60,458 bases of DNA from a virus. A program made the position numbers and the translations under genes. The stretch lies in IMG/VR virus record IMGVR_UViG_3300045988_036809. The stretch is one strand, 5' to 3'. The notes under the pieces were generated by a model, which was not told the origin of the DNA, searched no databases, and saw only the letters and a program-made list of their open reading frames with translations. Shown in pieces: positions 31,581-34,553 of the stretch; position 1 is the first letter of the stretch; each line of letters begins with the position of its first letter.

Positions 31581-31817
31581 TTAAAGCTTTTCTTTCTGCT
31601 CCTTTTCTTCGTCTGTCTCTTCATATATAAGTAGATCTTTGGGCTGCATGTCTAAGATCATGCACAAGCTATTGATTGCCTTTAGCGATATGTTTGTATC
31701 TTCCTTCTTGATCTTCTTTAGCGTGTCTTGGCTTAGTATTCCGCTTGTTTTTGCCTTGTAAGAAGTGAACCCGGCACGATCCAGCGCATCGCCTACATTA
31801 AATTTATATTTGAGCAT
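31581..31817 (-). CDS. XRE-family HTH regulator (second switch)
   Basis: MLKYKFNVGDALDRAGFTSYKAKTSGILSQDTLKKIKK..ISLKAINSLCMILDMQPKDLL. GGAGGG RBS. Divergent from the plus-strand operon. Confidence 0.7.
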   Translation of the reverse strand: MLKYKFNVGDALDRAGFTSYKAKTSGILSQDTLKKIKKEDTNISLKAINSLCMILDMQPKDLLIYEETDEEKEQKEKL

Positions 31818-31917
31818 CTTATACCCTCCTTCCGTGATTATTTGCTTGTTTTCTATATTATAATATGGTGGCGAAAAAGTCAAGAAAAAATATAACTAAA
31901 AAAAGTTATAAAAACGC

Positions 31918-31946
31918 TTGACTATCACTTTTGAAAGTGATATAGT
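31918..31946 (+). promoter_or_regulatory. Consensus promoter TTGACT-17-TATAGT with an 18-bp palindromic operator filling the spacer
   Basis: ATCACTTTTGAAAGTGAT at 31924-31941 lies between the -35 and -10 elements. Confidence 0.65.
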
Positions 31947-31994
31947 AAAACCAAGTTAAGAAACCAAGCACCAAACGAAAGGAAGGAATCAAAT

Positions 31995-32108
31995 ATGAAA
32001 AATTACAAGATCACAGACAAAGCGACTAAGACAATAATTGGAGTTGTAGCAATGACACCAGATCAGGCGCGCAGAGCTGAAAAGGATTTCATAGTTAAGG
32101 AGGCATAA
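31995..32108 (+). CDS. Micro-ORF, 37 aa
   Basis: AAAGGAAGGA RBS. MKNYKITDKATKTIIGVVAMTPDQARRAEKDFIVKEA. Below the ORF-track cutoff. Confidence 0.45.
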   Translation: MKNYKITDKATKTIIGVVAMTPDQARRAEKDFIVKEA

Positions 32109-32111
32109 GAC

Positions 32112-32240
32112 ATGGAAAGATCTATTTTAGAAAATATGGTATTTGCTTTCATGGTCGGAGAATTAGGAATTGAACCGATCACAGCAAGAAAAGAAGTTGA
32201 AAAAATGACGGATGAACAGTTAGAAAAATTTATTGATTAG
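32112..32240 (+). CDS. Micro-ORF, 42 aa
   Basis: AAGGAGG RBS. MERSILENMVFAFMVGELGIEPITARKEVEKMTDEQLEKFID. Confidence 0.5.
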   Translation: MERSILENMVFAFMVGELGIEPITARKEVEKMTDEQLEKFID

Positions 32241-32300
32241 CCGAAACGCTCCGATCTTGGAGCGTCCACCGCGGGACGGTCTCCCGGTGCTGATGATGGC
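32240..32300 (+). ncRNA. Hammerhead-like ribozyme motif HH1 (type II topology)
   Basis: CGAAAC + stem III GCTCC-GATCTT-GGAGC + GUC (cleavage after 32266) + stem I CACCG(CG)GGA-CGGTC-TCCCGGTG + CUGAUGA (32290-32296). Open stem II is only ~3 bp, with an extra U. Confidence 0.6.
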
Positions 32301-32320
32301 AGACCAGAAAGGAAAAAAAT

Positions 32321-32473
32321 ATGAAATACACAATCAAGATCAGTGGAAAACAGTATAACGACAATTACACATATGACACACAGAATGACGGTGACTTCTT
32401 CGGAGAGATCAAGGAGATCATCGAAGAGATCGAAAAGGGAAATATTGATACCTTGGAATTATCAAAAAATTAG
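32321..32473 (+). CDS. Micro-ORF, 50 aa
   Basis: AAAGGA RBS. MKYTIKISGKQYNDNYTYDTQNDGDFFGEIKEIIEEIEKGNIDTLELSKN. Confidence 0.5.
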   Translation: MKYTIKISGKQYNDNYTYDTQNDGDFFGEIKEIIEEIEKGNIDTLELSKN

Positions 32474-32533
32474 TGTCGAAACCGCCCGCGTGGCGGTCTT
32501 GCATAGGCTGGCAACCTTGCAACTGATGAGACA
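32474..32533 (+). ncRNA. Hammerhead-like ribozyme motif HH2 (type II topology, full consensus core)
   Basis: UGUC-GAAAC + stem III CCGCC-CGCGU-GGCGG + UC (cleavage after 32498) + stem I UUGCA..UGCAA + CUGAUGAG-ACA (32523-32533). Stem II GACA/UGUC is 4 bp. Confidence 0.7.
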
Positions 32534-32580
32534 AGCCGGATAAACGAAAGCGAGGTTTTGAACTTGGAACAAGTGAAATA

Positions 32581-32639
32581 GTCGAAACGGTGGAACGTTC
32601 CACCGTCTGCAGGAACTGCCCCACCTGCACCGATGAGAC
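32581..32639 (+). ncRNA. Hammerhead-like motif HH3 (core variant CCGAUGAG, U4 to C)
   Basis: GUC-GAAAC + stem III CGGUGG..CCACCG + UC (cleavage after 32607) + stem I UGCAGG-10 nt-CCUGCA + CCGAUGAG-AC. Confidence 0.5.
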
Positions 32640-32657
32640 AGGGCGAACAATGAAAGG

Positions 32658-32924
32658 ATGGTTGATTTTATGAGAATTGAAACAGAAGAACAAAAGAAAA
32701 GTAGAATTTTCGAGCATTACAAGCAGTATATAAAAAAGCCGGTAAATAAAGGCGGATGTATTCGGTTTATAGTGATTGAATATATAGTTAGGCTTACGGA
32801 TATTGACCCGTTCAAAATGGCCGCAGAACTAAAAAAAGATGGATATATCATTGCTTTTGATGATTCTAGCATATCCGAGCGCGAAAACGAACGGAAAAGA
32901 AAAGCAGTTGAAAAAATCGCATAA
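32658..32924 (+). CDS. Hypothetical protein, 84-88 aa
   Basis: ORF track. Alternative ATG at 32670. Confidence 0.5.
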   Translation: MVDFMRIETEEQKKSRIFEHYKQYIKKPVNKGGCIRFIVIEYIVRLTDIDPFKMAAELKKDGYIIAFDDSSISERENERKRKAVEKIA

Positions 32925-32925
32925 T

Positions 32926-32976
32926 AGGCAAGTGCAAACGGTGCAACGTTCCGGGGTTCGATTCCCCGGCTTGCTT
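32926..32976 (+). ncRNA. tRNA-like minihelix (acceptor stem + T arm only)
   Basis: AGGCAAG/CTTGCTT acceptor-like stem, TGCA-AACGG-TGCA hairpin, CCGGGG-TTCGATT-CCCCGG T arm. Shares AAACGGTG-AACGTTCC with HH3. Confidence 0.45.
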
Positions 32977-33016
32977 TTACCCGGAAGGGAATAAATAAAA
33001 GAGAGGTAAAAACATT

Positions 33017-33190
33017 ATGAACAGATTAGAAGAAGCGAAAAAGGCATTTTTAGAAGTTAGAAGCATTTTGACAGAAAAACATGAAGACTTTGCGCTTGCA
33101 AAAGCATATAAAAAGCCTTGGAAGTGGTACAGGGAACACACAACACAAGAAGCTATTGAGATTTTAAGAGCAGAAGTAAAAGCAAATTAA
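33017..33190 (+). CDS. Micro-ORF, 57 aa
   Basis: MNRLEEAKKAFLEVRSILTEKHEDFALAKAYKKPWKWYREHTTQEAIEILRAEVKAN. Followed by a terminator. Confidence 0.5.
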   Translation: MNRLEEAKKAFLEVRSILTEKHEDFALAKAYKKPWKWYREHTTQEAIEILRAEVKAN

Positions 33191-33236
33191 CCGCCGCAGA
33201 GGATGCACGCCGGAGCGATACCGGCGGCGGTTTTTC
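33191..33236 (+). terminator. Intrinsic terminator
   Basis: CCGCCGC...GCGGCGG stem (with inner CCGG hairpin), then TTTTT. Confidence 0.7.
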
Positions 33237-33279
33237 GCTCTTTTTGGGCGTATTATATTAAGATAAAGGGGGCTTTATT

Positions 33280-33447
33280 ATGAAATGCGATAAATTGCTA
33301 CAGGAAGCAAACAAGCAATACAAGGATATTATAGCATCCTTGGATGCTTTGAAACGCGGAGAAATAAGCGGAAGCAAAGCAAACGCGGACATCATGCGCG
33401 CATTTGATCGGGTTGATGAATCAATAAAAGAATATGAAAAGCAATAG
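33280..33447 (+). CDS. Micro-ORF, 55 aa
   Basis: AAAGGGGG RBS. MKCDKLLQEANKQYKDIIASLDALKRGEISGSKANADIMRAFDRVDESIKEYEKQ. Confidence 0.5.
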   Translation: MKCDKLLQEANKQYKDIIASLDALKRGEISGSKANADIMRAFDRVDESIKEYEKQ

Positions 33448-33639
33448 CCGGGATTTTTTCGGCTTCTTTTCGTACCTTGACAATTTGACGATATAGGCAT
33501 ATTATAGCCTTAATTATATCCATAAGTGTATTTATATGCCTTGTATGGTTCGCGTGGCTCTGTGGGCGTTCTACGCGTTCACAGGTGCAAATATTCGCTT
33601 GTTATAGCCTTTAATTTGTGCGCTTTGAAATTCTGCAAC

Positions 33640-33870
33640 CACGCCCGGACAAGATCAGCAAGACAGACACCCGGAGAAGTGCGCCCGGATTCCATCGCCG
33701 GAGCATGTCGGAAGATCAGGACACCCAAACCGGCGCAGCGGTATATCTGGAATTTTTGCAATATGCCAGCGATCCGCAAAAGATCAGCGCAAACGATCAG
33801 CACGAGCCCGGACAGGCCCCGGAAGAAATCGCCCAAGATCAGCCGACCGGTGGAGATCAAAAAACAGGCA
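33640..33870. other. GC-rich, GATC-dense non-coding island
   Basis: 7 GATC sites in 206 bp (33653-33858), mostly as AAGATCAG. Three overlapping ORFs in different frames have no coding signature. Confidence 0.7.
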
Positions 33871-33925
33871 TTGAAATTGTGAAATCGTGAAATTTCCGAC
33901 CAAAATCTGTGAAAAAATTTTTTGA

Positions 33926-34079: not shown

Positions 34080-34219
34080 CCATCTGACACATTTTGAAAT
34101 CCAAATATCAAAGATTTTGCAGAATAATCGCATTTCCCCAACTCTTCTATCAACTTATCGCGTGTCATTTCCGGGTTTGTCCGTTGCACATATTTAAGAA
34201 TTTCATCTATCTTATCCAT
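34064..34219 (-). CDS. Small hypothetical protein, 51 aa
   Basis: ATG overlaps the stop of 34212..34553 by 8 nt. MDKIDEILKYVQRTNPEMTRDKLIEELGKCDYSAKSLIFGFQNVSDGSTRI. Confidence 0.35.
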   Translation of the reverse strand: MDKIDEILKYVQRTNPEMTRDKLIEELGKCDYSAKSLIFGFQNVSDGSTRI

Positions 34220-34553
34220 ATCTTTTCTCCATAAAATTACTCATAATACTATCGGCAAGGTATATAATATCTCTACCATAAAGAGACATAAAATCAGCGA
34301 TTATCTCTTCTGTCGGCATATCAATATGGCAATCATAAGAGAACGAATAGCAATGCACTAATTCATGGCAAAGCACCTTGTTTGTCATATAATCAGACAT
34401 ACCTCTTGCAATGCTAACCTTCTTGGTATTATTGTCGGTAACGCCCAACGTATATACGCCATCAGATCGCCGCAATTTTTCGCTATTCGGACGTACAAAT
34501 TGCAATATCCAATTTCCCCCATTTATTGTGAATACCATTTCTATATACCTCAA
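34212..34553 (-). CDS. Small HExxH metallopeptidase-like protein (ImmA/IrrE- or SprT-like)
   Basis: VLCHELVHCYSF motif in 113 aa. Confidence 0.5.
   Translation of the reverse strand: MRYIEMVFTINGGNWILQFVRPNSEKLRRSDGVYTLGVTDNNTKKVSIARGMSDYMTNKVLCHELVHCYSFSYDCHIDMPTEEIIADFMSLYGRDIIYLADSIMSNFMEKRYG

Follow-up and report, generated by a model that had tools for sequence, protein, structure and literature searches.

Type II hammerhead ribozymes at the stop codons of a micro-gene operon in a gut Lachnospiraceae phage

Background

What might self-cleaving RNA motifs accomplish when they are lodged, one after another, between the very small genes of a phage operon? This question is raised by a 60,458-nucleotide (nt) stretch of viral DNA, IMG/VR record IMGVR_UViG_3300045988_036809 (the whole of which we call the window), in which an earlier note, made from the sequence alone, had marked three tandem type II hammerhead-like motifs, here termed HH1, HH2 and HH3, between open reading frames (ORFs) of less than 90 amino acids (aa). 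By means of hand mapping, covariance models, descriptor scans and a comparison with relatives from gut metagenomes, we show that all three belong to a conserved family of type II hammerheads whose members are regularly placed at stop codons. With a probability of roughly 0.8, we propose that they cut one polycistronic transcript co-transcriptionally into single-gene messages. We also describe tRNA-like elements that occupy equivalent junctions in the same operon and its relatives.

Identification and structure of the three hammerheads

The three motifs lie on the plus strand and share one order of elements, namely a stem II strand, GAAA, the stem III hairpin, U-C17, the stem I hairpin, C-U/C-GAUGA and the second stem II strand (Table 1). 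In each of them stems I and III are closed by loops and stem II is open, as seen both by hand mapping and in a descriptor scan. When compared with the hammerhead core (C3 U4 G5 A6 N7 G8 A9, G12 A13 A14, A15.1-U16.1, H17), HH2 is a complete match, HH1 is complete with one U inserted after A9, and HH3 is complete except for a change of U4 to C, just as the earlier note had read them. The stem II closing pair G10.1-C11.1 is present throughout (C32242-G32298 in HH1, C32477-G32530 in HH2 and C32583-G32637 in HH3), and the 1.1-2.1 pairs are C-G, U-A and U-A, respectively. The coordinates and order of elements in that note were borne out by hand mapping, the Rfam model and the descriptor scan, and the positions that it named for cleavage (32266, 32498 and 32607) coincide with C17 of HH1, HH2 and HH3. 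Accordingly placed cleavage 3' of H17, with 2',3'-cyclic phosphate and 5'-OH ends, is predicted for all three.

A feature that had escaped the note is a 5-bp pseudoknot in each ribozyme, which joins loop I to the tail just 3' of stem II. Such a loop I/3'-tail pseudoknot of at least 4 bp is found in most type II members, and its disruption slows the rate 20- to over 100-fold (Perreault 2011, PMC3088659). The note had further counted a stem II of only 3-4 bp as a weakness; as this stem is often only 2 bp in the class (PMC3088659), its shortness here is normal.

Table 1. Coordinates of the ribozymes, junction elements, genes and signals of the operon (SD, Shine-Dalgarno sequence; RBS, ribosome-binding site; HTH, helix-turn-helix)
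Feature	Positions	Strand	Remarks
HH1, type II hammerhead	32240..32305	+	RF02276 62 bits; stem II G32240-C32242 / G32298-C32300; stem III 32246-32265; C17 = 32266, predicted cleavage after it; stem I 32267-32289; core CUGAUGA 32290-96, then extra U32297; pseudoknot GGUCU 32278-82 with AGACC 32301-05; SD GAAAGGA (32307-13) on 3' side
HH2, type II hammerhead, full consensus core	32474..32539	+	RF02276 27.2 bits; stem II U32474-C32477 / G32530-A32533, 4 bp, directly 3' of TAG 32471-32473; stem III 32481-97; C17 = 32498, predicted cleavage after it; stem I 32499-32522; core 32523-29; pseudoknot CUGGC 32508-12 with GCCGG 32535-39
HH3, type II hammerhead, C4 core	32581..32645	+	RF02276 29.3 bits; stem II G32581-C32583 / G32637-C32639; stem III 32587-32606; C17 = 32607, predicted cleavage after it; stem I 32608-29; core CCGAUGA, C4 = 32631; pseudoknot UGCCC 32617-21 with GGGCG 32641-45; SD at 32652-58 on 3' side
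Deleted-cassette remnant	32540..32581	+	RBS GCGAGG, last 5 codons and stop of 74-aa gene
TLS-A, tRNA-like minihelix	32926..32981	+	begins 2-3 nt after stop of 84-aa gene
Y-shaped element, tRNA-like or terminator-like	33189..33250	+	overlaps last 2 nt of 57-aa ORF stop
HTH gene, Cro/C1-type, divergent	31581..31883	-	Pfam HTH_26 E 5e-7; weak PHROG transcriptional repressor match
Sigma-70-like promoter TTGACT-17-TATAGT, extended TG	31918..31946	+	
37-aa ORF	31995..32108	+	third-position substitution excess 16/21/66
42-aa ORF	32112..32240	+	G of TAG stop (32240) is first base of HH1 stem II
50-aa ORF	32321..32473	+	codon-position bias 14/14/42; same protein, without a difference, in 192 index blocks
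84-aa ORF	32670..32924	+	88 aa when read from ATG 32658
57-aa ORF	33017..33190	+	
55-aa ORF, last gene of the unit	33280..33447	+	
Intrinsic-terminator-like hairpin and U tract	33446..33472	+	likely operon end

The Rfam check that the earlier note had proposed gave a hit for each of the three motifs, one of them above threshold: the type II model (RF02276, Hammerhead_II; gathering score 37 bits) recovers HH1 well above it, with E 1.9e-10 for the whole window, and places HH3 and HH2 below it (E-values of 0.004 and 0.014, respectively, when 3.5 kb were searched, and of 0.07 and 0.25 over the full window). The long loop I of these two is treated by the model as a local gap. The descriptor scan of the window returned the three hammerheads and one weak junk match on the opposite strand, and a covariance model of the family, run over the 60-kb window with filters off, gave the three hammerheads only, at 64-74 bits, the next match being at 12 bits. 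As this model was built on 45 members, the window's three copies among them, its scores speak for uniqueness in the window and not for independent significance. When the full window was compared with Rfam at a permissive cut-off (E up to 1), no twister, pistol, hatchet, hepatitis delta virus-like or other ribozyme and no further hammerhead emerged, and a DNA search of a phage database matched HH1 alone, in three unannotated gut phage records. Minimum free energy folding of single sequences (z -0.1 to -1.7 for the ribozymes) was uninformative, as expected for pseudoknotted junctions, and was not taken as evidence.

Conservation, covariation and the variant cores

Searches with the 84/88-aa and 50-aa proteins recovered 21 related loci (L001-L021) from IMG/VR and gut metagenomes in ENA, and a pattern scan for the C4-core HH3 type found it in at least 119 viral contigs. 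When the descriptor was run over about 140 fetched loci it recognized 235 hammerheads, 134 of them distinct, with one, two or three ribozymes per operon in 55, 66 and 16 locus-strands, respectively. When 45 diverse members are aligned, pairing amounts to 99-100% in each of the three stems, 10 pairs are altered on both sides, and the stem II closing pair (columns 3/69) is C-G in 45/45. The covariation score is 0.557; shuffled alignments score 0.194 (none of 500 reached the observed value) and slid registers 0.06-0.15. Pairing of the pseudoknot reaches 69% in one column register, despite a one-column offset of the HH2 type; changes in loop I are matched by changes in the tail (GGUCU/AGACC, GGCUU/AAGCC, UGAUC/GAUCA, UUGAGCA/UGCUCAA and CGGCCU/AGGCCG), and the best pseudoknot measures 4-7 bp in 225 of the 235 scanned instances. 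The covariation and the intact cores of the relatives thus identify HH2 and HH3 as genuine family members despite their sub-threshold Rfam scores.

The core itself varies among the 134 distinct homologues only at position 7 (U, C or A), at position 4 (U or C) and in the optional U after A9. Position 7 is a known free position of the hammerhead core. The extra U is present in 77 of the 235 instances, and otherwise near-identical ribozymes exist both with and without it. Likewise, otherwise near-identical backbones bear either U4 or C4 (L084 versus L091), and both forms are found inside a single locus, L125. The C4 core occurs in 89 distinct sequences of the fetched sample, a count that is inflated by the many loci fetched with a C4 pattern; in the 21 loci fetched by protein, C4 is seen in every HH3-type copy. 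Every other core base of the C4 homologues is intact, and their stem III, stem I and pseudoknot show compensatory changes.

These observations bear on whether one or more of the copies could be decaying or inactive, with HH3 disabled by its U4C change, HH1 by its extra U, and HH2 alone working. HH1 and HH3 indeed depart from the strict consensus, a departure that served as a rejection rule in the Perreault 2011 survey (PMC3088659), and HH3 lies under the Rfam threshold. Set against this are the spread of the C4 core over the contigs noted above with its helices intact and covarying, the coexistence of near-identical ribozymes with and without the extra U, and the 62 bits of HH1, and we therefore consider decay very unlikely. 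The C4 core of HH3 and the extra U of HH1 are rather conserved traits of their lineages.

Stop-codon punctuation and regulated cleavage

The ribozymes of the family are placed with respect to genes in a highly regular fashion. Of 111 distinct ribozymes, 105 lie right at the stop codon (-5 to +1 nt) that ends an ORF of 30 aa or more (median 81 aa), whereas only 6.7% of random positions in the same loci adjoin such a stop. In 71 of those, an SD and a start codon follow 3' of the ribozyme at a median distance of 30 nt (interquartile range 29-30). The stop-codon/ribozyme/RBS punctuation claimed in the earlier note is accordingly real, and it is family-wide. In the window HH1 takes the last base of the 42-aa stop codon as its first stem II base and HH2 starts directly 3' of the 50-aa stop, both as had been described. 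HH3 does precede the gene that the note gave as 84-88 aa, the most likely start of which is ATG 32670 (84 aa), in agreement with nearly all database gene calls; this gene family has a hammerhead in its 5' untranslated region at 22/22 distinct junctions.

The contact between stop codons and stem II could also be taken to mean that cleavage is not constitutive and is slow, or regulated or tuned by conditions such as metal ions or ribosome traffic, above all in the C4-core HH3. Translation of the upstream gene would then gate folding, since a terminating ribosome would cover stem II together with the 5' half of the stem III helix. The downstream genes would be controlled by cleavage either in their decay, which RNase J1 would bring about from the 5'-OH end, or in their relative dosage. 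The 105 of 111 abutments fit such a scheme, as does the fixation of C4 in the lineage that precedes the 84-aa gene family (22/22), although U4C cuts in vitro activity. A natural A6C variant from phage and gut sequences moves the metal preference to Mn2+ (PMC7151607), and regulated cleavage was raised for slower phage variants in Perreault 2011 (PMC3088659). On the other hand, the HH1 and HH2 types possess the pseudoknot-stabilised, near-consensus cores usual in ribozymes that cleave fast and constitutively, and no extension is seen that would bind a ligand or protein. Genome economy explains the abutment equally well, and junction elements that are not ribozymes abut stop codons too. We hold regulation of this kind to be unlikely, and favour constitutive processing of the transcript.

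Exchange of gene cassettes between ribozymes

The sole difference between the window and loci L001 and L014, as established by alignment, is a 207-nt in-frame deletion with its junction at 32563|32564. The gene lost by this deletion encodes 74 aa and lies between HH2 and HH3 in L001 and L014; what is left of it reads TTG GAA CAA GTG AAA TAG (32564-32581, 5 codons, TTG-initiated). The presence of three hammerheads within 400 nt is thus explained by the loss of this gene, and such a density is specific to this genome. An unrelated 75-aa gene fills the HH2-HH3 slot in L013 and others, in L006, L008 and L016-L018 HH2 stands directly before the 84-aa gene with no HH3, and the same gene families have differing neighbours across loci. 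The deletion, the swapped 74- and 75-aa genes and the relatives without the slot show that units of ribozyme, RBS, ORF and stop codon behave as exchangeable cassettes.

Such shuffling might suggest that the ribozyme sequences act mainly as DNA recombination joints between cassettes, RNA cleavage being secondary. The ribozymes are far more conserved than the intervening genes, HH1 being identical in 21 instances across loci, and both the unrelated genes of the HH2-HH3 slot and the changing neighbours of the same families would follow naturally. Nevertheless, the compensatory changes in the stems and pseudoknot point to selection on RNA structure and not on DNA identity, core conservation obeys the hammerhead rules exactly, and the deletion junction of the window falls inside an ORF and not at a ribozyme. 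A primary role as DNA joints is therefore distinctly unlikely; as a role it is compatible with RNA cleavage, and the two are not exclusive.

A model for processing of the operon transcript

If the hammerheads process the message, as we propose, a single promoter, probably under the control of the divergent HTH protein, would drive a transcript for six micro-proteins of 37-84 aa. The hammerheads would fold during its synthesis and cleave themselves after C32266, C32498 and C32607, with a message for the 37- and 42-aa proteins, a message for the 50-aa protein, a 109-nt leftover (32499-32607) and a message for the 84-aa protein as the expected products. The G+C-rich hairpin of stem III, bearing a 2',3'-cyclic phosphate, would close each upstream mRNA about 26 nt past the stop codon, and each downstream mRNA would carry a 5'-OH and open flush with the hairpin of stem I, with 1-7 nt between the end of the pseudoknot and the SD. 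As the helix left open is stem II, both new ends made by a cut would bear hairpins. In the type I and type III topologies one product each is left with a single-stranded end. Neighbouring micro-genes would be uncoupled in stability and translation, and the ribozyme would function as a natural insulator.

Several points weigh against this proposal. Cleavage at the three sites is a prediction from sequence, HH2 and HH3 fall under the Rfam gathering score, and HH1 has an insertion in its core. An extra residue between A9 and G10.1 is reportedly also present in the active hammerhead of chrysanthemum chlorotic mottle viroid (CChMVd). RNase J1 of Firmicutes can degrade RNA with a 5'-OH, as it does after cleavage by the glmS ribozyme; protection of the downstream message would hence hinge on the flush 5' stem I hairpin. 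U4C considerably lowers in vitro activity, so that HH3 may be slow or conditional, and slower than HH1 and HH2; a viroid U4C variant is cited as weakened in vitro and sufficient in vivo (both from PMC3088659). Finally, a 2019 review calls the purpose of such arrangements unresolved and treats polycistronic processing as a suggestion (PMC6765202).

The predicted ends also evoke a different fate for the fragments, in which hammerhead-flanked segments are excised and then joined to give circular or spliced RNAs, either by the ribozyme itself or by a ligase of the RtcB type; the candidates would be the 109-nt 32499-32607 fragment and, in relatives, the 74/75-aa gene. A 5'-OH and a 2',3'-cyclic phosphate suit ligation, and Perreault 2011 considered this outcome for clustered prophage hammerheads; the same authors, however, sought such products and found none (PMC3088659). 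Further, most operons have ribozymes at some junctions only, and no sequence feature would bring the two ends together. We regard this outcome as exceedingly improbable in comparison with simple separation of the messages.

tRNA-like elements at neighbouring junctions

Two junctions further downstream lack a hammerhead and are occupied by other structured elements (Table 1). TLS-A comprises a 7-bp acceptor-like stem (32927-33/32969-75), within which lie a small hairpin and, at 32952-68, a T-arm (CGGGG-UUCGAUU-CCCCG) that runs directly into the 3' strand of the stem; UUUUACC follows, and there is no anticodon arm. It holds an exact tRNA T-arm, GGGGUUCGAUUCCCC, and agrees with the T-arm pattern GGTTCRANYCC through GGGGTTCGATTCCCC, flanked by the 7-bp stem. 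It is neither a canonical tRNA with a full cloverleaf nor a tmRNA with a tag reading frame: ARAGORN, run on the whole window, reported no tRNA or tmRNA at TLS-A or at the Y-shaped element and only a tRNA-Val and a tRNA-Gln elsewhere, and Rfam gave only an 18-nt partial match to a tmRNA T-arm (32951-32968). The TLS-A family has 76 instances in 71 fetched loci. The Y-shaped element is made up of an outer stem AACCGCC/GGCGGUU, a hairpin GCA-GAGGA-UGC, an arm GCCGG-AGCGAUA-CCGGC and a U-rich tail. Its structured part (33189-33236) has the geometry of TLS-A, but its loop, AGCGAUA, is deviant and does not agree with the GGTTCRANYCC pattern. The motif CCGCCGCAGAGGAUGC..GCCGG-7 nt-CCGGCGGCGGUU with its U-rich tail is conserved in 45 loci.

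A structure-only search of the fetched loci found 41 distinct tRNA-like elements, as against none in reversed sequence and 2-4 in local shuffles, and 38 of the 41 are located at stop codons. On the 3' side of the 84-aa gene family a tRNA-like element is present at 17 distinct junctions and a hammerhead at 6, while on the 5' side of the 57-aa family a hammerhead is present at 14 and a tRNA-like element at 3. At homologous junctions, tRNA-like elements replace hammerheads. A literature search found no description of such an alternation in phages.

It is conceivable that the micro-gene cassettes are bounded by interchangeable stop-codon modules, either a type II hammerhead (the C4 lineage included) or a tRNA mimic without anticodon arm for host RNase P and RNase Z. 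Mitochondrial tRNA punctuation would thereby have a counterpart in phages, with ribozyme and tRNA-like signals standing in for each other, and the modules would also be the joints for cassette swapping; we put this forward tentatively, as the whole of it is more doubtful than not. That host tRNA enzymes process the tRNA-like elements is in itself a hypothesis to which we would give somewhat less than even odds, its support being indirect and consisting of the location of 38 of the 41 elements at stop codons and of the replacement of hammerheads. Its main rival is leaky termination at these elements: TLS-A and the Y-shaped element both fit a simple terminator pattern as well, and the stem of the Y-shaped element overlaps the stop codon, which makes canonical cleavage by RNase P at the 5' border of this element less plausible. 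Nonetheless, to read the Y-shaped element as a plain terminator is incomplete, since its three-way tRNA-like junction is conserved in 45 loci. A derivation of these elements from attP-type tRNA fragments was rejected, because the 5' acceptor strand is present and several occur per operon at stop codons; that the phage uses serine recombinases was also counted against it.

Further RNA elements were observed away from the operon. On the minus strand an anticodon-arm-less tRNA-like element of like architecture (27826-27874) lies between tRNA-Gln (27917-27989) and tRNA-Val (27643-27728), and an int-alpA RNA (RF02996, 46 bits, above gathering) is found at 26831-26899 on the same strand; immediately on its 5' side, near 26915-26925, is a T-arm-like GGTTCGAATCC. 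In many of the related contigs L022-L140 (e.g. L041, L055, L070 and L136) several tRNA or tRNA-like T-arm elements are arrayed on the other strand from the ribozyme operon.

Genomic context and the micro-proteins

The window stems from a temperate siphovirus-like phage of ~60 kb that belongs to gut Lachnospiraceae. Its genome carries genes for terminase, portal, major head and tape-measure proteins, a serine integrase and an invertase, two tRNAs, and a replication and recombination module with RecT, SbcC-like, DnaC/DnaD-like and methyltransferase genes. Nearly all of these genes are on the minus strand, and the ribozymes are situated in the sole sizeable plus-strand unit. Metagenome-assembled genomes that host related elements are those of gut Lachnospiraceae and one Selenomonadaceae bin.

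The unit in question is a small operon of about 31950-33470. The spacer of its promoter contains an 8+8 inverted repeat, ATCACTTT-TG-AAAGTGAT (31924-31941), which together with the divergent HTH gene is likely to form an operator-repressor pair, though here only as a candidate for control of the ribozyme operon. The true start of the HTH gene is likely to be the ATG at ~31817, the gene calls of relatives being 76-78 aa. Third codon positions hold most of the substitutions between relatives in 5 of the 6 micro-ORFs, which therefore behave as real genes.

As to the function of their products, the six micro-proteins (37, 42, 50, 84, 57 and 55 aa) gave no significant match in Pfam, PHROGs or NCBIfam, and the 84-, 57- and 50-aa proteins gave none in sequence searches of the PDB. 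An AlphaFold model of the 84-aa protein (predicted local distance difference test score, pLDDT, 75.5) found no fold match in the PDB, the best E being about 1, and a homologue search with this protein returned only close 'hypothetical' proteins. An anti-defence role, considered by analogy with ardA in Agrobacterium tumefaciens, was dropped as speculation because family and fold searches with the micro-proteins yielded nothing.

Beyond the operon a near-consensus promoter, TTGACA-17-TATTAT (33477-33505, plus strand), is followed by a G+C-rich stretch to 33900 without a convincing gene. The region 33477-33900 has at least 5 copies of A(A/C)GATCAGC (33651, 33780, 33793, 33835 and others), is conserved in relatives, and could encode a non-coding RNA or serve as an origin or partition site. 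A small HExxH metallopeptidase-like ORF at 34212-34553 on the minus strand, with weak SprT/DUF6782 matches and assigned to PHROG 1233, is possibly an ImmA-type partner of a lysogeny repressor.

Relationship to known systems

The three ribozymes share with RF02276 the core, the three-helix junction open at stem II, the H17 site and the loop I/3'-tail pseudoknot; they differ from it in the sub-gathering scores of HH2 and HH3, the C4 of HH3 and the extra U between A9 and G10.1 of HH1. Off-consensus cores have natural parallels in the U4C viroid and A6C phage/gut (PMC7151607) variants and, reportedly, in the extra core nucleotide of the CChMVd hammerhead, which are likewise compatible with function and compensated by tertiary contacts; in contrast to these, the C4 described here is no rare mutant and is fixed in a large phage lineage.

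The arrangement is closest to that reported in Perreault 2011 (PMC3088659), where several hammerheads flank single genes or short gene blocks in prophages, their proposed task being to divide a long phage transcript into mRNAs of one gene each. The likeness extends to co-oriented hammerheads around small prophage genes of varying identity and to the host, as Clostridium scindens also belongs to the Lachnospiraceae. Three copies within 400 nt place the present locus in the class of two or more co-oriented hammerheads that flank genes within about 2 kb. Cleavage was demonstrated there in vitro for examples from C. scindens, Azorhizobium caulinodans and A. tumefaciens (ardA locus), during in vitro transcription and, for one, in Escherichia coli, whereas for the present ribozymes it is a prediction; conversely, a quantitative stop-codon rule, the abundance of C4 and the alternation with tRNA-like elements are not stated in the accessible part of that paper. 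Since the arrangement had been published, the novelty that the earlier note saw in it was overstated: the locus is a well-supported further example and not a new kind.

The result on the three hammerheads themselves is hence confirmatory and will not surprise a specialist. This locus with its more than 100 relatives nevertheless offers a clean comparative system for the role of bacterial and phage hammerheads, with a strict stop/ribozyme/RBS layout, natural 'knock-outs' in the form of a cassette deletion and of junctions with and without a ribozyme, a fixed C4 variant, and tRNA-like elements at equivalent junctions, which may serve the same purpose by way of host enzymes. Were the two kinds of element truly interchangeable, the selected function would be defined RNA ends and not ribozyme chemistry as such, and the modules could supply natural parts for operon insulation in Firmicutes.

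Such a use of tRNA-like structures would recall the punctuation model of animal mitochondria, in which tRNAs lie at the ends of coding regions and RNase P and RNase Z define the mRNA ends. The closest precedent is provided by the t-elements of plant mitochondria, which were found by the GGTTCRANYCC motif and direct the formation of mRNA ends by RNase P and RNase Z (PMC1920247); as in the phage operon, tRNA-like T-arm structures stand directly at the ends of coding regions. The phage elements, the processing of which is hypothetical, differ in being bacterial and not organellar, in lacking an anticodon arm and in alternating with self-cleaving ribozymes at equivalent junctions. Synthetic counterparts exist in RiboJ insulators and in guide RNA arrays flanked by ribozymes or tRNAs, which free each unit from its upstream context. 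The phage operon resembles RiboJ-type designs in having hammerheads or tRNA-like elements between cistrons and in the 5' hairpin that would be left before the RBS; those devices are engineered, and this one would be natural.

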